Of a DNA stretch of 50,338 nt, positions 793 through 48,424 are shown one piece after another. A program made the translations under genes and the position numbers. The notes below the pieces were generated by a model, which saw nothing but the letters and a program-made list of their open reading frames with translations, searched no databases and was not told the DNA's origin. Numbering within the stretch: the first letter of the stretch is position 1; each line of letters opens with the position of its first letter. The stretch lies in assembly GCA_026982515.1 (NCBI GenBank), contig JALSGY010000424.1, forward strand, positions 1-50,338. Reading direction: 5' to 3'. Source of the stretch: Paracoccaceae bacterium. Lineage in GTDB: Bacteria > Pseudomonadota > Alphaproteobacteria > Rhodobacterales > Rhodobacteraceae.

Positions 793-2397
793 GTGTCGAT
801 GATCAGTAACATGGCGCAGGTGCGCAGGCTTCCCCAGACATTCGCCACCTGGGGGATGTTCTGGCTGGTGGTGGCCGTGCTGGGGGCGCTTGCGTTCTTT
901 TCGGACGGGCTGCGCGCGCTGCTGGACGCCTGGCAGTTGCCGGAATACAGCCACGGGCCGCTGATCCCGGTGCTGTCGGCCCTGCTGTTCCTGCGCCAGC
1001 TGAAAACCGAACCGGTCGAGACCGGCCCGGTGCGTGACTACTGGCCCGGTATCGTGGTGTTGCTTGCCGCCCTGCTGATGGGGGCGCTTGGCCGGCTGGC
1101 CAATATTTCCGACATCGTGGCCTATGCGCTGATCCTGTGGGTCGGGGGCATCCTGCTGGTCAGTTTCGGCTGGAAGCAGGGCCGCCGGTTCTGGCCGCCG
1201 GTGCTGCACCTGATCTACATGCTGCCGCTGCCCGGGGTGGTCTATTACAAGCTGTCGACCTACCTGCAGTTCATCTCGTCCGAACTCGGGGTCTTTCTGC
1301 TGCAGTGGCTGCAGGTGCCGGTTTTCCTGGATGGCAACATCATCGACCTGGGGGTCTACAAGCTGCAGGTGGCCGAAGCCTGTTCGGGGCTGCGCTACCT
1401 GTTCCCGATCCTGAGCTTTTCCTACATCTTTTCGGTGCTCTACAAGGGGCCGATCTGGCACAAGGCGATCCTGCTGGTCTCGGCGGCGCCGATCGTTGTG
1501 GTGATGAACTCGGTGCGTATCGCGCTGGCCGGCTACATGGTGAACGCCTATGGCATCGAATGGGTCGAGGGGCTGAGCCACTTCTTCGAGGGCTGGGTGA
1601 TCTTCGTGATCAGCATCGTGATCCTGTTCATCCTGGCGCGCATCCTGCTGATCTTCCAGCCGGTGAAGATGAGCCTTGCGCAATCGCTCGACCTGGAAAT
1701 CGACGGCATCGGCACGCAGTTCATGCGCCTGCGCCTGGTGCAGGCCTCGACGGGGATGATCCTCGCCGCGGTGCTGATGGTGGGCGCCGCCCTGTCCTGG
1801 CAGTTGCTGCCGGAACGTGGCACGCAGATGGTGGAGCGCGCGCCGTTCAGCCTTTTCCCGCGCCAGTTGGGCGACTGGAAGCAGCGCGGACCTGCCCAGT
1901 CGCTCGAAGCAAGCGTGGTGGTTGTCCTGGGGGCCGATGATTATCGCTCGGTCACCTTTTCCAGGCCGGGCGCCGCATCCGATATCGGCCTGTTCATGGC
2001 CTGGTATGACGACCAGAGCCAGGGGGGCGTGCATTCGCCGGAAATCTGCCTGCCCGGCGGCGGCTGGGAAATTGCCTGGCTGGAACGCACCGACATCGCC
2101 GACAGGCTCGGGCGGCAGGAGCCGTTCAGCATCAACCGGGCGATCATCCAGAAAGGGGAAACCCGCATGATGGTCTATTACTGGTTCGATCAGAAGGGCC
2201 GCAAGATTGCCTGGGATTTCGCCGCCAAGTTCTGGCTGCTGGCCGACGGTATTGCCACCGGACGCACCGACGGGGCGCTGGTCCGGCTGACCACGCTGAT
2301 CGAACAGGGTGAGACCGATGCCCAGGCCGAGGCGCGCCTTCTCGACATGACGCGGGCCCTGCTGTCGCCGTTGCCGAAATTTATCCCGGCAGGGTAG
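793..2397 (+). CDS. xrtD: Exosortase fused to a C-terminal EpsI-family domain (XrtD-like, VPLPA-CTERM-type)
   Basis: The N-terminal half is polytopic and carries the exosortase catalytic motifs: Cys in AEACSGLRYLFP (TGT at 1381..1383), Arg in MNSVRIALAG and His in LSHFFEGW. The C-terminal ~190 aa carries the EpsI-like motif GGVHSPEICLPGGGWE. A VPLPA-CTERM protein is encoded on the same replicon. The start is uncertain (GTG 793, ATG 799 or ATG 811). Confidence 0.8.
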   Translation: MSMISNMAQVRRLPQTFATWGMFWLVVAVLGALAFFSDGLRALLDAWQLPEYSHGPLIPVLSALLFLRQLKTEPVETGPVRDYWPGIVVLLAALLMGALGRLANISDIVAYALILWVGGILLVSFGWKQGRRFWPPVLHLIYMLPLPGVVYYKLSTYLQFISSELGVFLLQWLQVPVFLDGNIIDLGVYKLQVAEACSGLRYLFPILSFSYIFSVLYKGPIWHKAILLVSAAPIVVVMNSVRIALAGYMVNAYGIEWVEGLSHFFEGWVIFVISIVILFILARILLIFQPVKMSLAQSLDLEIDGIGTQFMRLRLVQASTGMILAAVLMVGAALSWQLLPERGTQMVERAPFSLFPRQLGDWKQRGPAQSLEASVVVVLGADDYRSVTFSRPGAASDIGLFMAWYDDQSQGGVHSPEICLPGGGWEIAWLERTDIADRLGRQEPFSINRAIIQKGETRMMVYYWFDQKGRKIAWDFAAKFWLLADGIATGRTDGALVRLTTLIEQGETDAQAEARLLDMTRALLSPLPKFIPAG

Positions 2398-2423: not shown

Positions 2424-3326
2424 ATGCCCAGTATCAGACCCTATTTTCGTGTGTTGCGGCCCCATCAGTGGCTCAAGAATGCCTTGGTGTTCCTGCCCTT
2501 GCTGGCAGCGCACCGGTTTGACGGCGGCACGCTTCTTGATGCCGGCCTTGCCTTCATCGCGTTCAGCCTTGTCGCCTCGAGCGTTTATGTCCTGAACGAC
2601 CTGGTCGACCTCGAAGCCGACCGGGCCCACCCGCGCAAGCGCAACCGCCCCTTTGCCTCGGGGGCAATTGCAACGTCCAGGGGGCTGCTTCTGGTGCTGG
2701 CGCCCCTGGGGGCCGGGGCTCTGGTTGCCGCGCTGCTGGGGCCATGGTTCGGCCTCGTGCTGTTCGGGTATTACGCCACCACGCTGGCCTATTCCTTCTT
2801 TCTCAAGCGGCGCATCGTGATCGACATCTGCGTCTTGGCCGGGCTTTACACCTTTCGCATCATTGCCGGCGGGGCGGCCACGGGCATCGAGATTTCCGTC
2901 TGGCTTCTGGCCTTTTCGGTTTTCTTTTTCCTGTCGCTTGCCGCCGTCAAACGCCAGGCCGAACTGGTTGACGGGGTGGCCAGCGGCAACCTGAAGGCCC
3001 ACGGGCGGGGCTACATCACCGATGACCTGCCGATCGTGGCCAACATGGCCATTTCCTCGGGTTATGTTTCGGTGCTTGTCATGGCGCTCTACCTCAATTC
3101 ACCGGACGTCGCGCGGCTTTATGCAACGCCGGTCCTGCTCTGGGGTATCTGCCTGGTGCTGCTCTACTGGCTGAGCCGGATGGTCCTGGTCACCCATCGC
3201 GGCCAGATGCACGATGACCCGGTGGTGTTTGCCGTCAAGGACCGGACCAGCCTGGTCTGCTTTGCCCTTGTGCTTGTCATTGCGCTGGCCGGGGCGTGGT
3301 CTGGAGAACTCCCTTTCTCGGGATAA
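2424..3326 (+). CDS. UbiA-family prenyltransferase, decaprenyl-phosphate phosphoribosyltransferase (DPPR synthase)-like
   Basis: 300-aa polytopic membrane protein with the Asp-rich motif YVLNDLVDLEADRAHPRKRNRPFASG, matching the UbiA NDxxDxxxD signature. It lies 26 bp downstream of the exosortase gene on the same strand. Confidence 0.7.
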   Translation: MPSIRPYFRVLRPHQWLKNALVFLPLLAAHRFDGGTLLDAGLAFIAFSLVASSVYVLNDLVDLEADRAHPRKRNRPFASGAIATSRGLLLVLAPLGAGALVAALLGPWFGLVLFGYYATTLAYSFFLKRRIVIDICVLAGLYTFRIIAGGAATGIEISVWLLAFSVFFFLSLAAVKRQAELVDGVASGNLKAHGRGYITDDLPIVANMAISSGYVSVLVMALYLNSPDVARLYATPVLLWGICLVLLYWLSRMVLVTHRGQMHDDPVVFAVKDRTSLVCFALVLVIALAGAWSGELPFSG

Positions 3327-8677: not shown

Positions 8678-9697
8678 TTACCGGCCCCGCTCCGCGCGCC
8701 CCTTCACCCAGCCAAGAAACGCACGATCCGGGGCGCCAAGGCGCGGCTTGCCGGAACTGGCCCACCAGGCGCGCCATTGGGCTTCCAGCGCATAGACATC
8801 GGCGCCCGGCAGCAGGGCGCGCGCGTCCTCCAGCGTTTCGGGCCGCAGTTGCGGGGCTTCGGCCGCATCGACCACCACGGCGCGGCGGCTGATGCGGATG
8901 ATGTCGCCCGCTTCCTCGCTCAGGGTGTAATCGGGCAGGCTGTCGGCGCGGATGATCTCGCGCACCATGGCGCGAAACACCCGGCGCGGGCTGACAGAGC
9001 CCGATTTCTTCAGCAGCGTGCTCACCGACACGCGCCAGTCAGGCTGGCGGCCGCAATGTTTGCGCGCCAGTTCATACAGCCGGCGCTCAAGCGGGCGGCG
9101 CAGGTTGAAATAGTCTCTGTTCAAGGTCAAAACCGACTTTGACAGCACCGCGCGATACAGCCATTCCGACAGGGTGACCGACACCGACACCATGCGCCCG
9201 GCGCGGGTCTTGCGCACGATCTCCCAGCTTTCGATCAGCCCGAAACCGGTGGTCACTTCATCCTCGCCGGTGACGATATTGGTGGTGATGCGGGTGCCGG
9301 CCAGGCGTTCGAAGGCGTCGCGCAGCCGCCGGTAGCTGTCGCCCGAGGTTTCGCGCCCGGTCGCCAGCAGCAGGTCATGGGCGGTCAGCGTCAGCCGGCG
9401 CGAGGTCTTGCGCCCGGCATTGAGCGCGGCCATCAGCTGGCTGATGCAGAAGATCAGGATATCGGCGTCAAAGATCGTCGCCCGCCCCTTGACGCTTGGC
9501 GTGATGGTGATCGAGGCGGCGTTGTGCTCATAGCGCAGGATGCGCCGGTCGGGGCGGGTCGACAGCGAAAAGATCGGGTGTTCCATCGAGGCCAGATCAT
9601 GTTTGGGCACCGCACCGAAGAAATCGCAGACGAAGAAATCGCGGCTGGCGGCCGCCCTGCCCTGTCCTGTGCCCTGTCCTGCAACCCCCCCCGTCAC
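8678..9697 (-). CDS. repA: Plasmid replication initiator protein A (RPA/RepA family of Rhodobacterales RepA-type plasmids)
   Basis: Contains DFFVCDFFGAVPKHDLASMEHPIFSLSTRPDRRILRYEHNAASITITPSVKGRATIFDADILIFCISQL, typical of replication initiator protein A. The ORF is open to a TTG at 9937, but that extension would contain the DnaA box and iterons, so I place the start at GTG 9695..9697. The start remains uncertain. Confidence 0.75.
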   Translation of the reverse strand: MTGGVAGQGTGQGRAAASRDFFVCDFFGAVPKHDLASMEHPIFSLSTRPDRRILRYEHNAASITITPSVKGRATIFDADILIFCISQLMAALNAGRKTSRRLTLTAHDLLLATGRETSGDSYRRLRDAFERLAGTRITTNIVTGEDEVTTGFGLIESWEIVRKTRAGRMVSVSVTLSEWLYRAVLSKSVLTLNRDYFNLRRPLERRLYELARKHCGRQPDWRVSVSTLLKKSGSVSPRRVFRAMVREIIRADSLPDYTLSEEAGDIIRISRRAVVVDAAEAPQLRPETLEDARALLPGADVYALEAQWRAWWASSGKPRLGAPDRAFLGWVKGRAERGR

Positions 9698-9783
9698 GCG
9701 CCCTGCCCCTGCCTGTTTTCTGCCCGGTAATCCCGTTTGGTGATCCCGTTTCGGGATTCGTTGTTTCAGTGACACCTTGGTAG

Positions 9784-9792
9784 TTATCCACA
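9784..9792 (+). promoter_or_regulatory. DnaA box, perfect consensus TTATCCACA
   Basis: The sequence ttatccaca is read directly at 9784..9792. Confidence 0.6.
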
Positions 9793-9814
9793 GGGGCCGC
9801 GTCCAGCCCGGTGA

Positions 9815-9874
9815 TCGGGGGATCAGAGTCGGCTTCTCGGGGGTTCGGAATCGCTTTATCGGGGGTTCAGAGTC
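9815..9874 (+). repeat. Three iteron-like direct repeats with 22-bp phasing
   Basis: TCGGGGGATCAGAGTC starts at 9815, TCGGGGGTTCGGAATC at 9837 and TCGGGGGTTCAGAGTC at 9859. The start-to-start spacing is exactly 22 bp. Confidence 0.6.
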
Positions 9875-9942
9875 ACCCGGGCCTGAAAAAGTTGCGAAAA
9901 CCCCTTGTTCTTCCGTGGCTTGCCTGAACCACGCCAATCCCG

Positions 9943-9990
9943 TAACTGATAAGTAACATCAGATAACAGGCCGGTTTTTTTCTTTCGGGT
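9943..9990. other. AT-rich tract (candidate DNA-unwinding element)
   Basis: The sequence taactgataagtaacatcagataacaggccggtttttttctttcgg is much more AT-rich than its surroundings. It contains the ctgat/atcag inverted repeat and a T7 run. Confidence 0.4.
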
Positions 9991-10119
9991 TCCCCAAACC
10001 CCGCTTTCCCCCCGAAAAGGCGGGAATTTGCTTGGAAAACACAGGGTGTGTTCGACGCTTCTTCCCATGTCCCACCTTTTGTGCTACATCGCTCAAAACG
10101 CATAACATCGAGGGTCGGC

Positions 10120-11505
10120 ATGAGCAGCGAAGATCTTCCTCCGTATTTCAACATATCGCCGGATGCAGCCCTGGCCGAGCTTGACCCGCCAACCGGCACC
10201 GCCGGGTTCGGGCAGATCGCCGCCGCCTGCCAGCGCGGGCGCGACGACCTGGCGGGGCGAGGTCTGGACGAAAGCGGCGCGCGCAAGCTGCGGCTGTTTT
10301 CGACCTGGGAAATCACCAAATACCTGATCCCGGTGGCGCCGGCCCATTTCCGCCGCGTGCTGCGCCAGAACCCCGACCTGCCGCAGGGGCGCAGCGAAAC
10401 CGAAGGCGGCGCCAAGTGGTTCACGCTTGACGAGGTGCTGCGCCTGCGGGCGCATTTCGCCAGCCAGGGCTCGAAGGCCAAGGGCTACCTGCCCTACCGC
10501 CCCAAGGGCCAGCCCGCCAAGATCGTGGCGCTGGCCAATTTCAAGGGCGGGGTCGGCAAGACCTCGACCTGCGCGCATCTGGCGATGTCGGCAGCGCTCG
10601 ACGGCTACAGGGTGCTGATGATCGACCTCGACAGCCAGGGCTCGATGACCTCGATCTTCGGCGGGCGGGTGGAGGACGAATGGGGCACGGTGTTTCCGCT
10701 GCTGGCACGCCACTACGGCGAAACGCTGCAGGCCGACAACCAGCGCCGGCTGGACCGCGGCGAGGCCCCCCTGCCCCTCGATGACACGCTGTCAGAGGCG
10801 CTCAGGCTGCGCTCGCAGGACGTGATCGCCAAGACCCACTGGCCCAACATCGACCTGATCGGCGCGCAGCTGAACCTTTACTGGTCCGAGTTCCAGATCC
10901 CGGTATGGCGCATGCAAAGCCGCGGCTGGAAGCTGTGGGACGCGCTCAGCGGGGTGCTGGAGGCCGATGGCGTGCTCGATGAGTATGACATCGTGTTTCT
11001 CGACACGCCCCCTGCCCTTGGCTACCTGACGATCAACGGGCTGGCGGCGGCCGACATCCTGCTGGTGCCGGTTGGCGCGTCGTTTCTGGAGTTCGATTCG
11101 ACGGGGCGGTTCTTCGACATGCTGCACGCGACATTCGCCTCAATCGAAGACGGCGAAAACACCGCCGCGCGCGCCCTGGGCCGGCCCGAGATGGGTTTTG
11201 AATGGGATGCGGTGCGCGCCATCGTGACCCGGTTCGACGCCAGCCAGCAGGCCGAGATGGCCGGGCTGATGCAGGCCTACCTGGGGCGCACGCTCAGCCC
11301 CTACCGGCAGGATTTCACCGCGCTGATCGGCCAGGCCGGGGAAAGCGTGAACGGGATCTACGAAGCCGACTACCGCGATTTCAACCGCGAGACCTACGCC
11401 CGCGGCCGCGCCACGTTTGATGAAACCTATGCCGCGTTCAAGAAGCTTCTGGTCGGGATCTGGCGGCGCGATGAACTGGCGGCGCAGCAGGCGGCGGCCG
11501 AGTAA
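10120..11505 (+). CDS. parA: ParA-family partition ATPase
   Basis: Deviant Walker A motif ANFKGGVGKTSTCAHLA. ATG at 10120 is preceded by GAGGG. It is followed by parB and lies divergent from repA. Confidence 0.85.
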   Translation: MSSEDLPPYFNISPDAALAELDPPTGTAGFGQIAAACQRGRDDLAGRGLDESGARKLRLFSTWEITKYLIPVAPAHFRRVLRQNPDLPQGRSETEGGAKWFTLDEVLRLRAHFASQGSKAKGYLPYRPKGQPAKIVALANFKGGVGKTSTCAHLAMSAALDGYRVLMIDLDSQGSMTSIFGGRVEDEWGTVFPLLARHYGETLQADNQRRLDRGEAPLPLDDTLSEALRLRSQDVIAKTHWPNIDLIGAQLNLYWSEFQIPVWRMQSRGWKLWDALSGVLEADGVLDEYDIVFLDTPPALGYLTINGLAAADILLVPVGASFLEFDSTGRFFDMLHATFASIEDGENTAARALGRPEMGFEWDAVRAIVTRFDASQQAEMAGLMQAYLGRTLSPYRQDFTALIGQAGESVNGIYEADYRDFNRETYARGRATFDETYAAFKKLLVGIWRRDELAAQQAAAE

Positions 11506-11589
11506 AACAAGGCGCGCAACCGGGCAGGGGCGGGGAAATTCCAGAGATGGCTCAGAAAAAATCTTATTTTTCAATGACTTGTTCCTGCG

Positions 11590-11610
11590 GCGTTTCGCGT
11601 GCGAAACATC
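11590..11610. promoter_or_regulatory. parS-like palindrome copy 1 (core GTTTCGCGTGCGAAAC, 11592..11607)
   Basis: Near-perfect 16-bp palindrome in the parA-parB intergenic region. Its reverse complement shares 19 nt (gatgtttcgcacgcgaaac) with the copy at 12721. Confidence 0.5.
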
Positions 11611-11679
11611 GGGGCGCGCGCGGGGGCAGGGTTCTGTTTACCCCGGCGTCGCAGGATGGGGCCGCAGGAGGTGCAAGAC

Positions 11680-12720
11680 ATGGCAAAACGTAAACGGCTG
11701 ACCCCGCCCGAGATCGCGTCGCAACCGGCGCCGGAAACCAAGTCGGTGTCCCATCCGCTTGGCGTGCAGCCGGTGGTGAGCCGGCGGGCGCCGATTGCCC
11801 AGGTGGCGGGCGAGGCGTCGGCCCAGGCGGCGCTGGAAGAGGTGGCGGGCGAGTTGCGCAATGCCCGGACCGGCGGGCGCCTGGTGCTGGAACTGCCGCT
11901 TGACGCGGTGGATGAAACCTACCTGGTGCGCGACCGGCTGGAAACCGAAGGCGATGAGCTGGACGCGCTGATGGAAAGCCTGCGCCAGCGTGGCCAGCAG
12001 ACGCCGATCGAGGTGGTCGAGCTGGGGCAGGGGCGCTACGGGCTGATCTCGGGCTGGCGCCGGCTTGCAGCGCTGCGCCGGCTGCATCAGGGTGGCGGGG
12101 CCGAGGCCGGGGCGGGCGCGGTGCTGGCCCTGCTGCGCCAGCCGGAAACCGCCTCTGATGCCTATCTCGCGATGGTCGAGGAAAACGAGATCCGCACCGG
12201 TCTGTCGTTCTACGAACGCGCGCGCATCGTGGCGAAAGCCGCCGAAAAGCGTGTCTATTCCAACGAAACTGCCGCGCTCAAGGGGCTGTTTGGCAATATC
12301 GCCCGGGCCCGGCGTTCAAAGATCGGGTCATTCCTGAAACTGTACAAGGCGCTCGACAGCCGGCTGCGCTTTCCTTCGGCGATCTCCGAGCGCCTGGGGC
12401 TGGCGCTGGTCAAGGCGCTGGAGGCGGACCCCGAGTTCGGCCCCCGCCTGCGCGACCGGCTGCGCAAGGCCGACGTGCAGAGCGCGGCTGACGAGGTCGC
12501 GCTGCTGGAACGCGCGCTCAAACCCGCGGCCAGGCCGGCGCAGGCGCCGAAAACAGTGTCTGAACCGGGCGAAAAGGGCGAAAAGCGGGAAACAGAGCCT
12601 TCATCCGAGGTCGCGCCGGGGATCCGGCTGCAGGCCGAGCAGGGGCGCCTGGTGCTGAGCGGCAAGGGGGTGGACGCGGCGCTGCAGCGCGATCTTGTTG
12701 CCTGGCTGGCGCGGCGCTGA
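11680..12720 (+). CDS. parB: ParB-family partition protein
   Basis: ATG at 11680 is preceded by GCAGGAGG. ParB N-terminal box-like segments are present: RQRGQQTPIEVVEL..YGLISGWRRLAALRRL and YLAMVEENEIRTGLSFYERARI. Confidence 0.8.
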   Translation: MAKRKRLTPPEIASQPAPETKSVSHPLGVQPVVSRRAPIAQVAGEASAQAALEEVAGELRNARTGGRLVLELPLDAVDETYLVRDRLETEGDELDALMESLRQRGQQTPIEVVELGQGRYGLISGWRRLAALRRLHQGGGAEAGAGAVLALLRQPETASDAYLAMVEENEIRTGLSFYERARIVAKAAEKRVYSNETAALKGLFGNIARARRSKIGSFLKLYKALDSRLRFPSAISERLGLALVKALEADPEFGPRLRDRLRKADVQSAADEVALLERALKPAARPAQAPKTVSEPGEKGEKRETEPSSEVAPGIRLQAEQGRLVLSGKGVDAALQRDLVAWLARR

Positions 12721-18780: not shown

Positions 18781-19455
18781 CTAATCAGGCAAAATCAGGC
18801 CGCAGACAAGCAGGTTTCCGACAATTTGCCACCGTCCGTCCGGGGGTGCATGACCGGGAAAGCGGGCAAGCCCGCCGGGAAAGGCGATCGAGAACCCGCC
18901 GGTGCTGGTGGATGCCGTGATCTCGACCGCGTCAAATCCGATCATCTCGCCGGTCAGCGGATACCGGGCCTTGTAGACGGCTTCCTTGGCGCTGAAGATC
19001 AGCTTGGCCAGCAGGGCGCGGTCGCGGGCGGGCTGGCGGTCAAGCCAGGCGCGTTCGGAGCGCGTGCAGATCGTGCCTTCCAGTTCCGCTTCCAGGGGCG
19101 TGGCGTCTTCGATGTCGATGCCGATCGCGCGCAGGTGCGTGCGGGGGGCCACGGCGGCGATGCAGGCGGTGGAACAATGGGCGATGGACCCCACCAGCCC
19201 TTCGGGCCAGACGGGCGCGCGGTCGGGGCCCTGCGGCACCGGGGCGGGGGGCAGGCCGATGTCGGCCATTGCAAGGCGCGCGGCCTGGCGCCCGGCGGCA
19301 AACTCCAGCCGCCGCCGGGGCACCGCGCGCGTCACTGCGGCGTCTTCCCCGGGATACAGCGCGCCGGCCGCAGCCGTCGGATCGGTGGCCGCGACCCCGA
19401 CACCTGGCCCCAGAAGCCCGCGCAGGGCTTCCGTGAGCGCTGCGAGATCGCTCAT
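18781..19455 (-). CDS. 4'-phosphopantetheinyl transferase (EntD/Sfp type)
   Basis: Contains FAAGRQAARLAM, GSIAHCSTACIAAV, IGIDIE and KLIFSAKEAVYKA. Its ATG overlaps the upstream NRPS-like stop codon (ATGA at 19452..19455). Confidence 0.85.
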   Translation of the reverse strand: MSDLAALTEALRGLLGPGVGVAATDPTAAAGALYPGEDAAVTRAVPRRRLEFAAGRQAARLAMADIGLPPAPVPQGPDRAPVWPEGLVGSIAHCSTACIAAVAPRTHLRAIGIDIEDATPLEAELEGTICTRSERAWLDRQPARDRALLAKLIFSAKEAVYKARYPLTGEMIGFDAVEITASTSTGGFSIAFPGGLARFPGHAPPDGRWQIVGNLLVCGLILPD

Positions 19456-22400
19456 GCGCTGCTGGACTGGCGGCGCGCGCGCATTTCGCGCCGCCGTTTC
19501 ATGGCTTCGGCGCGGGCTTCGGCTTTTTCGCCGGAAACAGTGTCTGTTTCAGGGGTTTTCGCTGGTTTTGCGCCCCCGGAAAGCTTGTCTTCCACGGTGC
19601 GGGCCAGCCCATCCAGCGTCGGAAAACGGAAGATGTCGGTGATGGAAAGCCGGTCGGCGCCCAGCTCCTTGCGAATCTCGCGATGCGCCTGCACGGCCAG
19701 CAGCGAATGGCCACCGAGATCGAAGAAGTTGTCCTTTGCGCCGATCCCGGACACCCCGAGGATGCGTGACCAGATATCCGCCACCTGCTGCATGACGGTG
19801 CCAACAGGGGCGGTGTCTTCTGTTGCCGAAGACGGCTTGCCGGCCGCGGCAGCAGCCATCGGGGCGGGCAGGGCGTTGCGGTCGACCTTCTTGTTGGGCG
19901 TCAGCGGAAAGGCGTCAAGCGTGACGAAGCGCGCCGGCAGCATGTGGGCTGGCAGGCGCGCGCCAAGATGGGCCTTCAGGTCGGCTTCGGGCACCGGGGT
20001 CTCGGCCAGCGTGTAGGCGACAAGCTGGCGCAGCCCCGGCACATCCTCGCGCAGCATCACCACCGACTGGCGCACGCCCGGATGGGTATCGAGCGCGCTT
20101 TCGATCTCGCCCAGTTCGATCCGGTAGCCGTGCAGCTTGACCTGGTCGTCGGCGCGGCCGAGAAAATCGAGCTGCCCGTCCGCGCGCCAGCGCACCAGAT
20201 CGCCGGTGCGATACAGGCGTGCGCCCTGGCTGTCGGTGAACGGGTCGTCGACAAAGCGTTCATCGGTCAGGTCGGGCCGTTGCCAGTAGCCGCGCGCCAC
20301 CCCGGCCCCGCCGATGTAAAGCTCACCCGCCATGCCAAGCGGCACCGGCGCGCGGTTTTCGTCCAGCACATAAACGCGGGTATTGGCGATCGGGCGTCCG
20401 ATCGGCGCGACGGTGTCGGTCGGGACAACCGGGCCGGTGGTCGACCAGATCGTGGTTTCGGTCGGGCCATACATGTTTTCGACATGGCCCCCGGCAAGCC
20501 CCAGCAGTTCGCGCACGAGCCCCCCCGGCAGCGCCTCGCCGCCGATCATCAGGTGGCGGACATGCGACAGCGCGTGGCGCGCCTCGTCGTTCATCACCAG
20601 CATCTGCGCCATCGAGGGCGTGCACTGCATATGGGTGACCGCGTGGCGCTGGATCTGGGCCGCGATCGAAAAGTCATCCTCGGCCGGCCCGGTTTCCTGG
20701 TTGGTGCGGCGCACCACCTCGGCCAGCGGCTTGAGGCCCTCGAGCACGGTGTCGCGCGCGATGCCGTAGTCGATCAGGCAGGCGATTTCGTCGACACCGA
20801 TGCGCTTGAGCTGTTCGGTGCGCGCCAGGCAGTCGTCAACCGTGCCAAACAGGCCCGAATCCTCGAAATAGCGCAGGAAGGCAAACTCGAGGATGGCGTC
20901 GAGCTCTTCCTCGCTCAGGATGCCGAGGTCGATATCGAAGGCGTTGTTCACGCCCTTGGGTTTCTTGAAGGCCGGGAAGACCCAGGCAAACTGCTTGATC
21001 AGCCCGGCGGCCGAGCGCAGGTAGTCCTTCATCGGCCCGCGGGCGATTTCGCGCACCGCTTCGCGGTCGGTCCCGACGAAAGTGTGCAGCATCAGCGTGA
21101 CGGTGAAGTCATCCGGGTCGTGGCCGGCCTCGCGCAGGGCGGCGTGGTAGATCCTGATCTTTTCGCCGACCTCGTCGATGCTCTGGCCAAGCAGGTGGGT
21201 CAGCACGTTGGCGCCGATCTCTCCGGCTTCGCGCCAGGTGTCGGGATTGCCGGCCGTGGTGATCCAGATCGGCAACTCTTTCGAGACCGGCCGGGGCTGG
21301 GTGAGCACCGCGTGCGGTGTGCCGTCGGCGGTCGGAAATTCCACCTCTTCGCCACGCCACAGGCGGCGCAGATCGTCGATTGCGCGATACATGGCGGGCT
21401 TGTTTTCGGGCGGCGTGTTTTCCGGGCGCAGCACGAAGTCATGCGGCTGCCAGCCCGAGGCGATGCCCAGCCCGGCCCGCCCGTTGGTCAGGTTGTCGAT
21501 CACCGCCCAGTCTTCGGCGATGCGCGCCGGGTGGTGCAGCGGGGCGACGCAGCTGCCGGCGCGCACCGCGATATTGCGCGTGATGGCCGCCACCGCCGCG
21601 CCGGTGACCGAGGGGTTGGGATAGGGGCCGCCGAACGCGTGGAAGTGCCGTTCCGGCGTCCAGACCGCGCAAAAGCCGTTCTGGTCGGCGAACCGTGCGC
21701 CATCGAGCAGCATCTTGTACTTGTCGCGCCCCTGGCCGTCGTCGTTGCCCCAGTAAAACAGGCTGAATTCCATGCCGCGCCCGGTGATGGCGTGCACCCC
21801 GGCGTTGTCGCCGGCCACCAGTGCGCGGTTTTCGTCGCTGCTGAGCACGACCTTGAAGCCGCGCGCAAGCGTCCAGAACAGCTCGAGCACCGAAATGTCG
21901 AACGACAGGCTGGTCAGGGCCAGCCAGACGCCCGGCGGGTCATGGGCGATGCGTTCATCCATGCCGGTGAAGAAATTGGCGACGTTGCGATGCTCGACCA
22001 TCACGCCCTTGGGCTTGCCGGTGGAGCCCGAGGTATAGATCAGGTAGGCCAGATCTTCGCCGGTCACGCCGCTTTGCGGGTTGATCGCCGGGGCCGAGGC
22101 GATCTGTGGCGCATCGTCAAGGCTGAGCAGTTGCGCGCCCGTTTCCGGCAGTGCATGCGCCAGGCCGGTATTGGTCACGATAACCCGGGCCCCGCTGTCT
22201 TCGGCATAAAGCGCGGTGCGGTCGGCCGGATAGGCCGGGTCCATCGGCAGGTAGGCGCCGCCGGCCTTGAGGATCGCCAGCGCCGCCACCAGCAGGTCGG
22301 TCGAGCGCGGCAGGTGCAGCCCGACGACGACCCCGGGCCTGACCCCCATGTCCTGCAGCACATGGGCGATGCGGTTGGCGCGCGCGTTCAGGGCGTCATA

Positions 22401-24080
22401 GCTCAGGCTTTCGCCTTCGAACGCCAGCGCCTCGGCCTCGGGGTTGCGGGCGACCTGCTGTTCGAAGAATTCATGAATGCAGGTGTCTGCCGGAAAGTCG
22501 CGCGCGGTGTCGTTCCAGTCTTCCAGCAGCATCCGGCGTTCGGCGTCGGGCAGGATCGGCAGGGCGCCGGGCGCCGTGTCGGGGGCCTGCACCGCCGCCT
22601 CCAGAAGATGCGTCAGCCGCGCCGCCAGGCGTTCAAGCTCGGCTGCATCGGGGCCGGTATTTGTGCTGATCAGTGTCGCTTTTGCGCCCTGAACCGCCAG
22701 GGTCAGCGCGGTGCCCGGCAGGCATCCGGCGCCCGCATCGCGCGACAGGCCGATGGTGGGCAGAACCGCCTTTTCGGCCAGGCGGGCGGGCAGGTCGCAG
22801 GCGAAACCGCCGTTGTCGAGCGCCTGGGCCAACTGTGCCGACAGCGCATCCCGGCTGGCGGCGAAACTGCTTTCGAGCGCGCCATGCACCGGAACCCAGG
22901 GGCAGACGTAATCGGGCGCATCGGGCAGGTGACAGGCCATGTCCAGCCCGTCCGTCCCTGCCATCCTGGCAAGCAGGATGGCGAGGGCGGCCCAGGCATC
23001 TTCGGCGCCGGCCCCTTCGGGCAGGGCAAAGCCGTGGCGCGGCGCATCGCCGTCACCGTTGCTGCCGAGCCGCGGCAGATCAAGCGGGGCGACCTGCTCG
23101 AGCCGGTCGCGCCAGAACGGTTCGGCACGCAGCAAAGGGGCAAGAACTGCATCGATCCGGGCCGCGTCTTCGGTGTCCGGGCTGGGCAGAACGTCGCCGG
23201 TCTGCGCCACATCGGAGGCCGGGACCGGACGGCCGAAACAGTCACTGATACGGCTTAAAACGATGTCATTCGTGCCGGTTGCCACGGTCAGGCTGTCGGC
23301 CGTGGCGGCCGTGACAGTGCCCGGCGCCTTGCCCGAAGCGGTCGGCGCGGGCACAGCGCTGTGCACCAGCCGGATTTCCCCGCCGGCCTCGATCTTGGGG
23401 CAAAGCAGCGGGTTGCGATAGTCGCCATGGTCAAGCGCACGCACCAGCCCCGCGAGGGTCTCGGCCGATTTCGTGAAATCGAGCCGTCCGCCGGCCTCGG
23501 GCCGGGCGTCGCGGCCGAAGTAGCTGCGCTGGTCCAGATCCTGGGGCGTGGCGGCCGGCGTGTCGCTGGCCAGTTCGGCCATCACCTGGCCAAAGCTGTC
23601 GATGGCGGCGCTGTAGCATTTCGTGTTGAGCGTGAGGGCGGTTTCGTCAGGGGCGATGTCAAACCGGCTCTGGGCGATGATGTCGCCTTCATCGACGCCG
23701 CCCGAAATCAGGTGCCAGGAGATGCCGTGGGTTTTCTCGCCATTGATCAGCGCCCAGACCGGCGCATTGAGACCGGCATAGCGCGGCAGCGGGCCATCGT
23801 GAAAATTGACCGCGCCGCGGGCGGCCATGTCAAGCGCGTCCTGCGGGATCAGGTCGAGATTGGCGATGGACAGGAGCCAGTCGAAATCATGGGGTTTCAG
23901 CCGTGCGGCCAGATCGGCGCCGGGGGCGAGCACCGGCAGGCCGCGGGATTTTGCCCAGTCCTGCACTTCGGCATTGCGGGTCACGACAGCGCGGATCGGA
24001 TTGTCCGCCTCCAGCAGCATTTCACCACATTGAATGACAAGGGATTCGTTGCCGATGAGGACGGAACTGAAACCGGGCAT
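19452..24080 (-). CDS. NRPS-like module: formyltransferase-like domain, degenerate condensation remnant, adenylation domain interrupted by a luciferase-like monooxygenase, PCP
   Basis: Fmt-like residues ~1-300 (VNFHDGPLPRYAG). C-to-A linker LPILPDAERRMLLEDWNDT. A motifs LAYLIYTSGSTGKPKG, SFDISVLELF, NMYGPTETT, GELYIGGAGVARGY, YRTGDLVRW, GRADDQVKLHGYRIELGEIE and PNKKVDR. An LLM insert of ~350 aa sits between A4 and A5 (MEFSLFYWGND...GIASGWQPHDF...). PCP motif FFDLGGHSL, with the Ser codon at 19704..19706. Confidence 0.9.
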   Translation of the reverse strand: MPGFSSVLIGNESLVIQCGEMLLEADNPIRAVVTRNAEVQDWAKSRGLPVLAPGADLAARLKPHDFDWLLSIANLDLIPQDALDMAARGAVNFHDGPLPRYAGLNAPVWALINGEKTHGISWHLISGGVDEGDIIAQSRFDIAPDETALTLNTKCYSAAIDSFGQVMAELASDTPAATPQDLDQRSYFGRDARPEAGGRLDFTKSAETLAGLVRALDHGDYRNPLLCPKIEAGGEIRLVHSAVPAPTASGKAPGTVTAATADSLTVATGTNDIVLSRISDCFGRPVPASDVAQTGDVLPSPDTEDAARIDAVLAPLLRAEPFWRDRLEQVAPLDLPRLGSNGDGDAPRHGFALPEGAGAEDAWAALAILLARMAGTDGLDMACHLPDAPDYVCPWVPVHGALESSFAASRDALSAQLAQALDNGGFACDLPARLAEKAVLPTIGLSRDAGAGCLPGTALTLAVQGAKATLISTNTGPDAAELERLAARLTHLLEAAVQAPDTAPGALPILPDAERRMLLEDWNDTARDFPADTCIHEFFEQQVARNPEAEALAFEGESLSYDALNARANRIAHVLQDMGVRPGVVVGLHLPRSTDLLVAALAILKAGGAYLPMDPAYPADRTALYAEDSGARVIVTNTGLAHALPETGAQLLSLDDAPQIASAPAINPQSGVTGEDLAYLIYTSGSTGKPKGVMVEHRNVANFFTGMDERIAHDPPGVWLALTSLSFDISVLELFWTLARGFKVVLSSDENRALVAGDNAGVHAITGRGMEFSLFYWGNDDGQGRDKYKMLLDGARFADQNGFCAVWTPERHFHAFGGPYPNPSVTGAAVAAITRNIAVRAGSCVAPLHHPARIAEDWAVIDNLTNGRAGLGIASGWQPHDFVLRPENTPPENKPAMYRAIDDLRRLWRGEEVEFPTADGTPHAVLTQPRPVSKELPIWITTAGNPDTWREAGEIGANVLTHLLGQSIDEVGEKIRIYHAALREAGHDPDDFTVTLMLHTFVGTDREAVREIARGPMKDYLRSAAGLIKQFAWVFPAFKKPKGVNNAFDIDLGILSEEELDAILEFAFLRYFEDSGLFGTVDDCLARTEQLKRIGVDEIACLIDYGIARDTVLEGLKPLAEVVRRTNQETGPAEDDFSIAAQIQRHAVTHMQCTPSMAQMLVMNDEARHALSHVRHLMIGGEALPGGLVRELLGLAGGHVENMYGPTETTIWSTTGPVVPTDTVAPIGRPIANTRVYVLDENRAPVPLGMAGELYIGGAGVARGYWQRPDLTDERFVDDPFTDSQGARLYRTGDLVRWRADGQLDFLGRADDQVKLHGYRIELGEIESALDTHPGVRQSVVMLREDVPGLRQLVAYTLAETPVPEADLKAHLGARLPAHMLPARFVTLDAFPLTPNKKVDRNALPAPMAAAAAGKPSSATEDTAPVGTVMQQVADIWSRILGVSGIGAKDNFFDLGGHSLLAVQAHREIRKELGADRLSITDIFRFPTLDGLARTVEDKLSGGAKPAKTPETDTVSGEKAEARAEAMKRRREMRARRQSSSA

Positions 24081-24083
24081 GCG

Positions 24084-25112
24084 TTACTCTCCAGGTTGAG
24101 GGGGCAGAGGTCGGGCGTCGCGCTTCGCCGGTGAAAGGAGCCTGCGCCGCAGGGCGGCCAGATCGTGGCGCGCCATGGAGCGCAGGAATTGGGGGGACAC
24201 TTCGCGTTTCTTGCGGGTCAGCGTTGCACGCAGCCAGCACAGGCCGCCACCGGTCAGGTGGGCAAGCGTCGCGAGGCCGGCATAAAGGGCGCCGTGGTTC
24301 TTGGCGAAGTAGTGCCAGCGCGAGTCGTACCAGTAGTCGGGCACCCGCGACCAGGTTTTCATTCCGGTGGACACCGAACCGATATGGGTCACGACACTGT
24401 CGCGCAGAAAAATGATCTCGTGGCCAGCAAGGCGGACGCGGCGGCACAGGTCGGTTTCCTCGAAATAGAGAAAGAAGGTTTCATCGAACAGGCCCACCTC
24501 ATCGAGCACGCTCTGGCGCATCATCAGGCTGGCCCCGGCCAGCCAGTCGACAGACTGCCCGTCGCGCGGTGTTTCGATCGGCACCCGGTGGCGGGCCAGC
24601 AGGCGGCTGACCGGCCCGAAGCGGATCGCGCTTTCGAATTCGCTGAGGATCGAGGGGAAGCGGAAAGCCGAGGTGTGCGCCACCCCGTCCTCGCCGTGGA
24701 TGTAGCTGCCGGCGAAGGCGGTTTCGGGATGGGCAACCAGGTGGTTCAGCAAAACGCGGATCGCCTCCGGCTCGGGGAAGGCATCCGAGTTTTGCACATA
24801 AATGAAATCGGGGCGCGATCCGTCACTGAGTCCGGCCCGGATGCCGACGTTGTTGCCGGCCCCGAAGCCACCGTTGTGACCGGATTGCAGAAGGCGCACC
24901 CGGTCGTTCCTGTCCCAGCCCGCGTCCGCGATGTGATTGCGGATCGTTTCATCGGAACCGTCCCGGCTGTCGTTGTCGACGATGACGATTTCACCGGCGA
25001 TGCCGTCCATCGCCGCCAATGCGGCTTCGGTTGCGCGCAGGGTCATCGGCGCCGTGCGGTAGTTCAGGATGACGGTCAGAAGTGTTGGATCCGACGTGGT
25101 ACTGGTCTGCAT
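24084..25112 (-). CDS. Family-2 glycosyltransferase embedded between the PKS and NRPS-like genes
   Basis: ATG at 25110..25112 (MQTSTTSDPTLLTVILNYRT...IVIVDNDSRDGSDE...) lies 1 nt after the PKS stop. The longer track ORF (to 25187) would overlap the PKS. The stop is 3 nt before the NRPS-like start. Confidence 0.85.
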   Translation of the reverse strand: MQTSTTSDPTLLTVILNYRTAPMTLRATEAALAAMDGIAGEIVIVDNDSRDGSDETIRNHIADAGWDRNDRVRLLQSGHNGGFGAGNNVGIRAGLSDGSRPDFIYVQNSDAFPEPEAIRVLLNHLVAHPETAFAGSYIHGEDGVAHTSAFRFPSILSEFESAIRFGPVSRLLARHRVPIETPRDGQSVDWLAGASLMMRQSVLDEVGLFDETFFLYFEETDLCRRVRLAGHEIIFLRDSVVTHIGSVSTGMKTWSRVPDYWYDSRWHYFAKNHGALYAGLATLAHLTGGGLCWLRATLTRKKREVSPQFLRSMARHDLAALRRRLLSPAKRDARPLPPQPGE

Positions 25113-25113
25113 A

Positions 25114-28100
25114 CTATTCTGCTGCCTTGATTGTTTTTGGTGGGATGCTGGTTTCGCCAGCCTCCCATGCCCGTTCTGCCGCTTCAAGCCGGTGTTTCAT
25201 TCGTGCGGCGAGAACCCGCACATTGGGTTCAAGCACCATGGAATCGTGGTCGCCCGGCACTTCGAATACCTCGATGGCATGGGCCCATCTGGTCCAGCCG
25301 TTGTCCGGAAGAAGGTAGTGGCGATGCTTGTCGACAAGCCGCCCCGGCGCCACTTCCCACTGGCCGATCTGGGGCGGGCGGATCAGGGCAAGCGGCCCGG
25401 ACCAGGGCATGACCTTGTAGGCCCCCACGCTTTCGAGGAAAGCATCCTGGATGGCCGCATTGTGGAATTCATGCGCTGCCTCGGTTTCTTCGTCATGGCC
25501 CTGGCGTTTGCCCAGTTCCCAGGCGATGCGGTTCCTTGCCCAGGTGGTCAGATAGCCAAGGCCCTGACGGCGCAGGTTGATCCAGTTGATCATGATGCGG
25601 TCGCGCCGCGACAGCGGCGGGCGCACCGGCAGGGGGGTGTCGAGCATGATCAGCTCCGACACGGTTTCGCCGGCGGCCGTCAGCTGTTGGGCAATCTCGT
25701 AGGCAATGATGCCGCCGCCGGAAAACCCGCCCAGCATGTAGGGGCCATGCGGCCGGACCTGGCGCATTTCGGCGATATAGTCGCGCGCCGCCTCGACCAC
25801 CGAGCGGTGCGGCTCCTCATCGCCGTAAAGCCCGCGCGCCTGCAGCCCGTAAAACGGCCGGTCGGCGCCCAGAAGATGCGCAAGATGGCGCAGGTTCAGC
25901 ACGTTGCCGAACATGCCGGCCACCAGGAAGAACGGGGTTTTCGGCCCCCCTTCGCCGGCATGCATCGGCACCAGGTGGGTGAAGCGGCGTTCGGTCCTGG
26001 CCACAGCCGGGGCCGGGGCGCCGTCTTCTTCGTCGGTGGCCACACCGCGCGCGGCGATCAGCTCGGCGCATTTGCGGATCGTCGGGGCTTCGAACAGCAC
26101 CGAAATCGGAAAGTCGACCTGCCAGGTCTTGCGGATCTGTGCAAACAGCCGCACCGCGATCAGGGAATGTCCGCCAAGGTCGAAGAAACTGTCTTCGACG
26201 CCGACCTGATCGACCCCGAGCAGGTCCTGCCAGAAGCCGGCCAGCCGGGATTCGATCGCATTTTCCGGGGCAACGTAGTCGGCATCGAGCTCGGGGCGCT
26301 GGAACTTCTGCTCGCTGCCCTGGTTGTCGGCCACGCTTTCGCCGGCCTGGGCGGCCAGCCCGGCGAGATCGAGCGACGACACGATCACCTGGGGCAGATC
26401 GGTGCTCAGGGCGCGCAGGAACAGGTCAGCCCCCTCGGCCGGGCGAATACCCTGGGTCAGGTTGTGGCGCAGGCGCTCTTCGGCGGGCGACAGCGGGCGC
26501 GCGGCCTCGTTGTCGGGCAGGGTGGCGACAGGGTTGTCGGCCGGGGCGGCCGCGAATTGCGCCGCGCTTTCCAGGCGGCGGATCGAAAACCCGCGGATCT
26601 CGACGCAGACGGTGCCGTCGGGGGCCGCGATGGTGACATCGAAACTTGCGGTTTCGGCGCCGGCCTCGTTTTCGCCGCTGTTGCGCACCCAGCTGACGAC
26701 CTCGGCCGGCAGGGGGCGGAAGACCCGGACCGAGCGGTAGGAAACCGGCACCCACAGGTGGGTCGGGCGATAGCCGGCGATCAGCTCCATCGCCCAGCCG
26801 GTGGCGATATCCATCAGCCCGGGGTGCAGCAGGCAGCCGGTGTCATTCCCGGCCCCGGGCAGGGCAAGCCGGGCCAGGCCCTCGCCCTGACCCAGGGCGG
26901 TTTCACGCAGCACATGCCACTGGGCGCCGAAGTTCAGCTGTGCTTCCTGGGGCGCGCTCAGCCATTGGCCCGGCGGCGCGGTGACCGGAGCGCCGCAGCG
27001 CGCGGCGATGGCCGCGGGGTCGATCGGGTCGGGGGGCGTCTGCGGCAGCAGCGAAAGACTGGCCTGGGCGTTCTGTTCGCGGTCCGCGCCGGCGCCGCTT
27101 TCAACGCTCAGGTCATAGCCGGTGTCGCTGCGTGAAAGCGTCAGGCGGATGTCACGCTCTTGTCCGTCTTCCACGGCCAGCGGGCGCAGGAAATAGAGGT
27201 CGCGGATCTCGAATGTCTGTGGCTCGCCCTGTGCGCGCAGGGCCTCGGCGGCCAGTTCGATATACCCGGTGCCCGGCAACAGCGCGTCGCCCGCGCGGGT
27301 CCGGTGCTGGTCGAGAAACCAGCGCCCGTCCGCCCGCCAGCGCGCCGTGAACAGCCGGTTGCCGGCGCCGTCGAAGCTGGCGTCGTCCAGCATCGGCTCG
27401 CCCGCCGCCTCGACCGGCGGGGGCGGGGTGGACCCGGTGCGCACCTGCATGGCATCGGCGGCCATGCCGACATCGGCCCAGATGCCCCAGTCGATGGCCA
27501 GAACCCGGGTCTTGCCGCCGGCGCGCGCCCTGGCGTAGGCGTTGAGATATTCGTTGGCCGCGACATAGTCGACCTGCCCCGGCGGGGCGGTGACGGTGGA
27601 GGTCGAGGAAAACAGCACCAGCCAGTCGAGCGCGCCATCGGGGAAGAGCTCATCGAGCACCTGGGTGCCGTGGATCTTGGGGGCGAAGACATCTTCGATC
27701 CCGGTCATCGACTTGGTCATGATCAGCCCGTCTTCGATCAGCCCGGCGGCATGGATCACGCCATTGACCGGCCCCCAGCGCCCCTCGATCTCGGCGCGGG
27801 CGGCCCGCATGTCCTCGACATTGCTGACATCGGCGGCAAGACACATGACCTGCCCGCCGGCCTCTTCCAGCGCCTGCACCGCCCGGATGCGCCGCGCCAG
27901 GCTGTCGCCGGGGGCGGTATTGCGCAGGATCTGCTCCCATTTGTCCCGGTCGGGCAGGGCGTTGCGCGACAAGAGCACGATACGCGCCGAGACCTTGCGG
28001 ATCAGGGTTTCGGCCAGGGTCAGCCCGATGCCGCCGAACCCGCCGGTGATCAGGTAGACGCCTTCTTCGCGCAGCGGTGGCACCAGGGTGTCCGGGGCGG

Positions 28101-32081: not shown

Positions 32082-32840
32082 ATGGGGTTGAAGTTTTTGA
32101 AAGCCTGCGTGGCTTGCGCAATGGTTTATCTGCCCGCCGTCGGGACGGCGCAGGCGGCGACGGTCAATATTGTCCGGGTTGCCGATAATCCTCAGGAAAC
32201 GGTTTACGGGATTCGTGACAACACCGGGACAGACGGGGTTGATCTGGATGGTGCGATCTTTACGGCGACCTATGCCGATGGAACAAGCGAAGAGATCGTC
32301 TGGAACGCCTTGCGCACATTCAACTACAGCATCGATGGCGAAGCGGCCGGGACGGACACATATGTCTACATGAGCTGGGACGGGTTCGAAATGACGACGA
32401 CCCGCCTGCTGACCTCGCTTCTCATCCAGCTTGCTCCGGCCAGCTCGGTTTTTGACACGACGTTCATCTTCGATCCCGATCCGGCCTCTACGCCAGGGTC
32501 CAGCTTTGGCTATCCGTTCGAGCTTTACAGTGCCTATTCCGGTCTGCAGGGCAGCATCACGGCGACCTATTCGGGGATCGTGAACATGGCCGGCGATGTG
32601 GCGCGGGGCGATCTGTTCACCGACATGCTCGTCGACTTTTCGGGTCTGTCGACCGGTGGAATTCTTGGCGCCGTGAGCTTCAGGTCCGACATGGACACCC
32701 TGCGGTATGCGGGCGATCTGACGCCGATTTCCCCGGTGCCGCTTCCGGCCGGTTTCTGGCTTTTGCTGGCCGGCATGGGCGGTTTCGTGTTGAGCGGTCG
32801 CATGGCGCGGCGCGGCTCTGCGGCCCGGGTTTCCGCCTGA
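32082..32840 (+). CDS. Secreted protein with a C-terminal VPLPA-CTERM exosortase sorting signal
   Basis: Signal peptide MGLKFLKACVACAMVYLPAVGTAQA. The C-terminus reads ...PISP-VPLPA-GFWLLLAGMGGFVLSG-RMARRG (motif, TM helix, basic cluster). VPLPA is encoded at 32735..32749. I recognise no family for the ~200-aa mature domain. Confidence 0.85.
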   Translation: MGLKFLKACVACAMVYLPAVGTAQAATVNIVRVADNPQETVYGIRDNTGTDGVDLDGAIFTATYADGTSEEIVWNALRTFNYSIDGEAAGTDTYVYMSWDGFEMTTTRLLTSLLIQLAPASSVFDTTFIFDPDPASTPGSSFGYPFELYSAYSGLQGSITATYSGIVNMAGDVARGDLFTDMLVDFSGLSTGGILGAVSFRSDMDTLRYAGDLTPISPVPLPAGFWLLLAGMGGFVLSGRMARRGSAARVSA

Positions 32841-35072: not shown

Positions 35073-35087
35073 AAAAGAGACTGTTCC

Positions 35088-37287: not shown

Positions 37288-37423
37288 GCGGAGCAATTTT
37301 TCCGGTTTCCCGGACGTGCCCAATCAGGTGGTTCCCGTGTGACTGTATCTGACTGGTCGTCAGGCGGCACCTTTCGACGATCGGCGCTTTTTAAGCCGCG
37401 CCAAATTTCATAGTGATCAGTGC

Positions 37424-39037: not shown

Positions 39038-39084
39038 CGGGGGCTTGCGGAGGATCCGGTGGCCGGGGCGATGGGAGAGTGGAC

Positions 39085-39996: not shown

Positions 39997-40010
39997 TGTT
40001 TCTTATGTTA

Positions 40011-40031
40011 AAAGATGGCCCGTCCATCTTT
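40011..40031 (+). terminator. Weak candidate hairpin/terminator after the methyltransferase gene
   Basis: aaagatgg-cccgt-ccatcttt forms an 8-bp stem with a 5-nt loop, 15 nt after the stop codon. The stem is AT-rich and has no separate U-tract. Confidence 0.25.
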
Positions 40032-40214
40032 CCCGGCCCCGATGAGATCGGGCCATTTCGGCCCATGATGCGATGACGGGTGCCAGAATGGCGGATTATT
40101 CGTCAAACCCGGACAATTACCCATGTTTCAGCCCCCAGGACGTTGTTTTCTCGCTTCTCCCGAACAGATATCGTAAGGGCTTGCCGAAGGTATCCGCGGG
40201 ATGAAGCTGACATC

Positions 40215-41591: not shown

Positions 41592-41595
41592 CAGG

Positions 41596-42564: not shown

Positions 42565-42571
42565 GCCGCGC

Positions 42572-44116: not shown

Positions 44117-44360
44117 CCAAGGGGCCTCTTTTCAGGACGGGCGAAACAGACGAAAGTCGCTGCACCCGGGTCATTTTCTTGTTGAGGAACACCCGCTTGT
44201 CCCTGCGCTCTGCCCCCCATCGCGCGGTGCATACACCAAAGCTTGACCATTGTCATCAAAGCTGAGGGCCTCGTGTTGACGGGGAAAAATGCCCGTCGGA
44301 AACGGCCTTGGTTCGCTTTTGCCGGCCTGGGCTATATTCTTTTCTTGGCCAGAGGTAGAT

Positions 44361-46265: not shown

Positions 46266-46427
46266 GAAACAGTCCCCGCCCAGAGGGGTCGGCACGGCTT
46301 TACTCCGCAAGCGCGCATCGGCATAGAGGGCCGGTAGTTCTTGAGGGGTCCGGCCTGTGGTCTTCGGTTTCAACATATCTGCAGACATCATTCCCCCGGT
46401 GGCCCGCCTCGGCGGCCGGCGCCTCTG

Positions 46428-48392: not shown

Positions 48393-48424
48393 GAACCGGG
48401 CCCCCGCCCGCTGAAAGCCCCCTG

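Follow-up and report, generated by a model that had tools for sequence, protein, structure and literature searches.

Sequence analysis of an exosortase D gene and a VPLPA-CTERM cargo gene on a closed RepA/ParAB plasmid of an uncultured marine Rhodobacterales bacterium

The window analysed here, 50,338 nucleotides of contig JALSGY010000424.1 (GenBank assembly GCA_026982515.1, Paracoccaceae bacterium), carries near its start an open reading frame (ORF) that had been described, from the letters alone, as a plasmid-borne, XrtD-like exosortase fused to an EpsI domain. By its sequence and predicted structure this ORF is an ordinary, intact and full-length exosortase D (XrtD), the exosortase specific for the VPLPA-CTERM sorting signal; exosortases are membrane enzymes by which surface proteins are trimmed and sorted. 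It lies on a RepA/ParAB-type Rhodobacterales plasmid of about 50.2 kb, mainly of surface-polysaccharide type, and it very probably processes the VPLPA-CTERM cargo protein encoded on the same plasmid. Coordinates of all features are collected in Table 1.

The longest form of the ORF (793..2397, plus strand) begins with GTG and encodes 534 amino acids, and the ATG at position 799 is the start in the public gene call, giving 532 amino acids; in exact look-ups the GTG-start protein had no match and the ATG form had one. Residue numbers below follow the 532-aa form. Following the check proposed with the original prediction, the ORF was compared with the exosortase subfamily hidden Markov models and was assigned to TIGR04152 (XrtD) at 642.2 bits (cutoff 400, 6.6e-193), with model positions 1-486 of 486 covered. 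XrtW, the second-best subfamily, gave 239 bits (under its cutoff of 425) and XrtA gave 140.5 bits (under its cutoff of 208); no exosortase subfamily model other than XrtD was at or above its cutoff. The exosortase/archaeosortase signature TIGR04178 was found at residues 191-285 (65.4 bits versus 23), PF09721 at residues 30-284, PF11984 (DUF3485) at residues 325-530 (186 bits) and the EpsI model TIGR02914 at residues 354-530 (133 bits).

The Cys, Arg and His motifs of exosortases reported earlier for this ORF were all present, the three codons lying at 1381-1383 (AEACSGLRY), 1516-1518 (NSVRIAL) and 1579-1581 (SHFFEGW), respectively. In a conservation alignment of 47 sequences, comprising the window protein and 46 homologs of 65-85% identity, C195, R240 and H261 were invariant throughout. 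An AlphaFold2 (AF2) model built on the same alignment (pLDDT 82, pTM 0.76) consisted of a membrane core of helices reaching to around residue 285, a hydrophobic helix at residues 318-336 and a compact alpha/beta domain at residues 350-532, so that the fused EpsI domain of the original prediction was borne out by both family models and predicted structure. The motif HSPEICLPGGGW, quoted in that prediction, was found in this C-terminal domain, which is probably periplasmic, as judged from helix counting and an Arg-rich N-terminus. Its EpsI motif, HSPEICLPGxGW, has H412, P414, E415 and C417 invariant in 47 of 47 sequences and, with its invariant His, Glu and Cys, may serve as a loop for binding or as an additional reactive site. 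Within the motif (residues 410-423, window 2026-2067) lie residues 410-417, the one stretch inside the model where pLDDT falls under 50.

The system had been implied to be unusual; as regards the fusion, this was not supported. TIGR04152 spans both domains. A protein search with XrtD gave 6,359 homologs (E <= 1e-10), of which the best 120 without exception carry PF09721 and PF11984 in 520-575 residues, many of them named XrtD by NCBI or JGI; the EpsI fusion is thus the norm and the defining architecture of the family. EpsH proteins with fused EpsI regions had already been reported in 2006 (PMC1569441). The best protein match to the window XrtD in any database was 85% identical, and the best match on a plasmid 67%.

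The pairing of VPLPA-CTERM signals with exosortase D given in the original prediction agrees with the definition of TIGR04152 as VPLPA-CTERM-specific, and a TIGR03370-positive cargo protein was found on the same plasmid, that is, XrtD and one protein with the cognate signal co-occur on one replicon. TIGR03370 matched the C-terminal tail of the cargo at 28.4 bits (versus 25.35). The protein comprises a hydrophobic N-terminus (MGLKF...GTAQA-ATVN), a passenger domain that is all-beta and has about 190 residues, and lastly a sorting tail, PVPLPAGFWLLLAGMGGFVLSGRMARRGSAARVSA, whose motif (PVPLPAGFWLLLAGMGGFVLSGRMARR...) begins at window position 32736 and is followed by a transmembrane helix and a basic cluster at the extreme C-terminus. 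The hydrophobic N-terminus and the AQA-AT site are kept across the cargo family, and the AF2 model of the cargo had a pLDDT of 91. The circle was scanned in six frames both for tails resembling VPLPA and, more generally, for C-terminal helices followed by a basic cluster; the cargo had the sole credible sorting tail, in line with the single visible substrate noted originally.

The following course is proposed for the processing. The cargo would be exported by Sec with removal of its signal peptide and would be held in the inner membrane by the VPLPA-CTERM helix and the Arg cluster. XrtD would recognise VPLPA at the periplasmic face, and we infer that its Cys/Arg/His site would cut there to give an acyl-enzyme, after which the passenger domain would be set free or moved to an acceptor associated with the envelope or with exopolysaccharide (EPS); the fused EpsI domain, placed in the periplasm after the ninth helix, would assist. 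Such a mechanism is likely by homology with archaeosortase A (ArtA) and by the proposal that EpsH has a part in sorting linked to EPS (PMC1569441). ArtA of the PGF-CTERM system of Haloferax volcanii is a homologous polytopic Cys enzyme that requires Cys173, Arg214 and Arg253, and cleavage of its substrates is followed by their attachment to lipid (PMC9263693); it differs in being archaeal, in its signal and in having no EpsI domain.

According to an older hypothesis, an EpsH-like protein works in polysaccharide polymerisation or flipping instead of protein sorting. The proposal is mentioned historically (PMC1569441), and the position of xrtD among EPS genes would suit it. The plasmid, however, encodes a Wzx-type flippase and a Wzy-like protein apart from XrtD, for which reason the hypothesis was rejected; moreover, the Cys/Arg/His residues are invariant, the cognate sorting signal co-occurs and mutagenesis of ArtA favours peptidase chemistry (PMC9263693). 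A polymerase or flippase function is accordingly regarded as very improbable for this protein.

Several points weigh against processing of this cargo by this XrtD. A literature search on XrtD and VPLPA-CTERM gave no experimental work on XrtD and one incidental mention only. The basic tail past the cargo helix has 13 residues, longer than in most relatives. On the circle, 18-30 kb separate the cargo gene from xrtD, and in a survey of 42 XrtD loci from reference genomes and metagenome-assembled genomes a cargo homolog was found within 10 kb of xrtD in none (0/42); the pairing of the two proteins therefore rests on the type of signal and not on tight linkage. A PDB sequence search with the XrtD profile gave 0 matches, leaving no solved structure for comparison, and Foldseek of the XrtD model against PDB gave nothing at E <= 0.001. 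The passenger domain likewise had no Pfam match and nothing at E <= 0.001 in Foldseek against PDB, and since neither protein matched a PDB fold, no function was drawn from folds. Finally, further substrates or a second exosortase in the host are possible, because the sequence covers the plasmid alone.

The window is a closed RepA/ParAB plasmid. Its first 127 bases are identical to positions 50212-50338 (a terminal direct overlap), and the contig's public counterpart, a metagenome contig (ENA ERZ27262642, k141_573814, 50,352 bp), crosses the junction uninterrupted with the same overlap, which gives a closed circle of about 50,211 bp. Together with the repA, parA and parB genes, these findings uphold the plasmid location first proposed. 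The replication module (8678..12720) is about 78-81% identical in nucleotides to plasmid modules of Rhodovulum, Leisingera and Marinovum algicola, and the similarity of its DNA extends to Phaeobacter plasmids.

Gene content was assessed with 31 ORFs picked as likely genes and compared with Pfam and/or NCBIfam. By these matches the plasmid is predicted to code mainly for surface-polysaccharide functions, and besides the genes listed in Table 1 it encodes several GT2 and GT4 glycosyltransferases, a WecG-type transferase and a DegT aminotransferase; the polysaccharide region also holds a PKD-domain protein and a PMT_2-like membrane protein. No Wza/OPX, Wzc/PCP or Bac_transf priming enzyme, no RmlA-D rhamnose family (GalE alone was present) and no ABC transporter or exporter was found among the 31 scanned ORFs, and no relaxase or type IV secretion system was detected on the plasmid, which looks non-mobilizable and reliant on the host for polysaccharide export. 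As the Wza/Wzc-type export pair and a Bac_transf primer are missing among the scanned genes, the system is host-dependent, and the statement that all of it sits on the plasmid could not be maintained. PrsK and PrsR, reported as not visible in the original prediction, were indeed found in none of the ORFs compared with NCBIfam, and those compared with Pfam gave neither a histidine-kinase nor a response-regulator domain; this absence is uninformative, since only some PEP-CTERM/EpsH genomes have PrsK/PrsR (PMC1569441, Table 1).

Downstream of xrtD, after 27 nt, starts the gene for a UbiA-family prenyltransferase, probably co-transcribed with xrtD. Its protein covers positions 191-480 only of model NF006088 and lacks the N-terminal region of about 190 residues found in the family. 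As a conserved partner of xrtD the gene was rejected: it was near xrtD in 3 of 42 other loci only, and it is hence not a core component. A GT4 ORF at 3364-4032 (minus strand) aligns with only the C-terminal half of GT4 models (about 210-384 of 389) and is probably a truncated remnant, because there is no upstream space for the N-terminal half. The AsnB-type amidotransferase has as its best family TIGR03108, of the XrtA/PEP-CTERM system, at 580 bits (under the cutoff of 817), and it looks like an accessory enzyme of exosortase loci, here in an XrtD context. In the block next to the cargo gene, the protein resembling a nonribosomal peptide synthetase (NRPS) has formyltransferase, adenylation, MupA-type LLM and PCP domains, and the type I polyketide synthase (PKS) has the domain order KS-AT-KR-DH-ACP-TE.

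Table 1. Features of the window, with coordinates in window numbering
Feature	Position	Strand	Length	Basis or remark
xrtD, VPLPA-CTERM-specific exosortase D	799..2397	+	532 aa	TIGR04152
Polytopic exosortase (EpsH) core	880..1644	+		PF09721, TIGR04178; contains Cys/Arg/His; helical in AF2
Linker transmembrane helix, core to C-terminal domain	1753..1809	+		Hydropathy peak aa 319-337; AF2 helix 318-336
EpsI-type alpha/beta domain (DUF3485)	1852..2382	+		TIGR02914, PF11984, AF2 350-532
UbiA-family prenyltransferase (DPPR-synthase-like)	2424..3326	+		NF006088, 422 bits versus 351
repA	8678-9937	-		PF10134, 331 bits
parA	10048-11505	+		ParA match
parB	11599-12720	+		ParB match
PPTase / NRPS-like / GT2 / type I PKS block	18781..31563	-		Head-to-head with cargo gene
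VPLPA-CTERM cargo gene	32082..32840	+	252 aa	TIGR03370
Surface-polysaccharide genes	34053..50338	mixed		GalE, GT4, methyltransferase, Wzx, GT2, Wzy-like, PKD, AsnB, PMT_2-like
Wzx-type flippase	40080-41591			
Wzy/O-antigen-ligase-like protein	42572-44116	-		
AsnB-type amidotransferase	46341-48392	+		
GT2 across the junction	536->1 joined to 50211->49824	-	307 aa	Intact in the public copy (L003); divergent from xrtD

The plasmid location, too, had been implied to be unusual, exosortase systems being described as usually chromosomal, and this was not supported. Near-full-length XrtD was found by tblastn on 24 plasmids of PLSDB, 22 of which are annotated with xrtD by RefSeq; plasmid-borne XrtD is routine in Rhodobacterales, and the window is one more XrtD-bearing EPS plasmid of a kind already annotated automatically. 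Among the 42 loci of the survey, 35 were on contigs of 120 kb or less, and a RepA homolog was within 10 kb in 6; the recurrent neighbours of xrtD within the same distance were Wzy-like proteins (18/42), GT2 (16/42), WecG (12/42) and Wzx (11/42). A plasmid-borne cluster of EpsH, PEP-CTERM and EPS genes in Desulfovibrio vulgaris was reported in 2006 (PMC1569441), and exosortases were not mentioned in the literature found on roseobacter plasmids; a literature search on exosortases of Roseobacter plasmids gave unrelated papers only. In Tateyamaria omphalii pDOK1-4-6 (L001), XrtD is annotated at 8564-10176 as two overlapping coding sequences, an exosortase and an EpsI protein, whether through a frameshift or because the gene is naturally split; an unannotated match to the PKS of the window also lies on this plasmid. 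A 46%-identical XrtD match was also found, in three pieces at the end of the record, on a 24-kb unannotated plasmid entered in PLSDB as 'Bacillus velezensis' (NZ_CP061940.1), and, the record being that of a Gram-positive species, the presence of an exosortase points to contamination or misassignment.

The closest systems are those of pTB2 (Roseobacter denitrificans OCh 114), pRLO149_63 (R. litoralis), pRGUI04 (Rhodovulum sp. P5) and plasmids of Jannaschia sp. CCS1, all with the same two-domain XrtD at 60-66% identity. Like the window, they are RepA/ParAB-type, non-mobilizable plasmids of about 50-90 kb with EPS genes and one or two VPLPA-CTERM genes: pTB2 (69 kb) and pRLO149_63 both have RepA/ParAB, EPS genes and xrtD, with two VPLPA-CTERM genes apiece, and pRGUI04 combines xrtD and EPS genes with a single VPLPA-CTERM gene and, in addition, xrtE. 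The latter gene, of the VPEID-CTERM system (L002, 41033-41542), places two exosortase systems on one 64-kb plasmid. Unlike the window plasmid, pTB2 and pRGUI04 have a rhamnose operon, Wzc/Wza and a priming sugar transferase, whereas the window plasmid has an NRPS-like/PKS module, and its cargo is of another family.

Two further systems were compared. The XrtA/PEP-CTERM/EpsI system with PrsK-PrsR-PrsT (Haft et al. 2006, PMC1569441) shares with the window the superfamily, a tripartite C-terminal signal, an EPS neighbourhood and EpsI homology, and it differs in its PEP motif in place of VPLPA, in its dozens of cargo proteins in place of one and in its PrsK/PrsR. The RepA-I 'biofilm plasmids' of roseobacters (Michael et al. 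2016, PMC5030684) are, like the window plasmid, small and devoted to surface polysaccharide, and the RepA-parAB region of the window is about 78-80% identical in nucleotides to that of the 52.5-kb plasmid of Marinovum algicola and of Leisingera plasmids, a likeness seen at the DNA level. Their hallmark, the rfbABCD rhamnose operon with an ABC polysaccharide exporter, was not found on the window plasmid, and sortases are not mentioned in the biofilm-plasmid paper (PMC5030684).

The cargo may be the only substrate of XrtD in the host. Alternatively, the plasmid XrtD may be a shared sorting enzyme with most of its VPLPA-CTERM substrates encoded on the chromosome or on other replicons, in which case the system would not be minimal, and we lean slightly towards this view. 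Other XrtD replicons carry VPLPA-CTERM genes of unrelated passenger families near xrtD (0 to 3 VPLPA-type tails per locus within 10 kb), members of the cargo family are often located away from any visible xrtD, and in D. vulgaris one PEP-CTERM protein is encoded elsewhere than on the plasmid with the exosortase (PMC1569441). Only one tail was seen on the present circle, and nothing directly contrary was found. That the plasmid offers a tractable minimal model, as had been suggested, is not sustained: export depends on the host, 'minimal' cannot be established because the sequence is a metagenome contig with no host genome, and cultured strains with equivalent plasmids would be more tractable.

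Within processing of the plasmid cargo by XrtD, a less ordinary feature was met in the cargo family. Hint_2 (BIL) proteins encoded on other Rhodobacterales plasmids (L046, 15992-17425; L047, 11995-13197) have an N-terminal domain with 45-51% identity to the passenger domain. In the Hint forms, ...DIDTMREAGDLVPSPTS-VPC leads into a Hint_2 domain that begins at the nucleophilic Cys, and in the window form, ...DMDTLRYAGDLTPISP-VPLPA leads into the sorting tail; when aligned, both forms share the junction AGDL[VT]P.SP, followed by the Hint Cys or by VPLPA, respectively. The family is small (59 clusters): in about 44 clusters a signal peptide is combined with a VPLPA-type tail, in about 10 there is a Hint_2 domain but the signal peptide is missing, RTX repeats occur in one, and the C-termini of two are of other kinds. 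In the window and in loci L049 and L054, all with VPLPA forms, the cargo gene adjoins the same large type I PKS (about 2,145 aa). On P. marina pW43C (L046, a Hint form) the cargo homolog is about 8 kb from the same trio of NRPS-like protein (MupA-type LLM), GT2 and PKS in the same EPS cluster. The linkage to PKS is absent in L048 and was not seen in L053, where a GT4 gene and a fragment of a PPTase were all that lay nearby. The recurrence of cargo with the NRPS-like/GT2/PKS genes suggests a conserved functional module.

From these comparisons an uncharacterised all-beta family may be delineated that is tied to an NRPS-like/GT2/PKS and EPS module and occurs in two main interchangeable forms, with XrtD processing and Hint autoprocessing as functionally equivalent means of C-terminus activation, possibly for attachment to a lipid or glycan derived from PKS or EPS synthesis; we put this forward tentatively, as a rather unlikely proposal. 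In its specific form it would have the cargo C-terminus covalently joined to the lipid or glycan product of the adjacent PKS/EPS module, with XrtD and Hint as exchangeable activation modules. The shared passenger domain and junction, the occurrence of VPLPA, Hint_2 and RTX forms in one family and the proximity of PKS in the window, L046, L049 and L054 would fit such a joining, as would the known chemistry of BIL/Hint domains, which self-cleave at their termini, and of the Hedgehog Hint domain, which passes its cargo to lipid (PMC5874633). The evidence is, however, purely comparative, the PKS is not adjacent in L048 and was not seen in L053, the Hint forms have no signal peptide, so that their compartment may differ, and simple release of the passenger accounts equally for both architectures. 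For these reasons covalent joining is considered doubtful, and processing of the cargo by XrtD, with release or transfer of the passenger domain, is retained.

XrtD systems in Rhodobacterales are thus largely plasmid-borne, beside polysaccharide genes of Wzx/Wzy type, and on the plasmid they are accompanied by a single cognate cargo gene or by a few. Better minimal models than the metagenomic contig are R. denitrificans OCh 114 (pTB2) and like cultured strains. In the literature found, no acceptor of bacterial exosortase transfer was named, and if the proposal of equivalent activation were true, the cargo family would point to such an acceptor. The exchange of Hint and VPLPA at one junction, usually beside the same PKS, is the less ordinary point of the present plasmid and would provide a testable handle on the attachment targets of exosortases.

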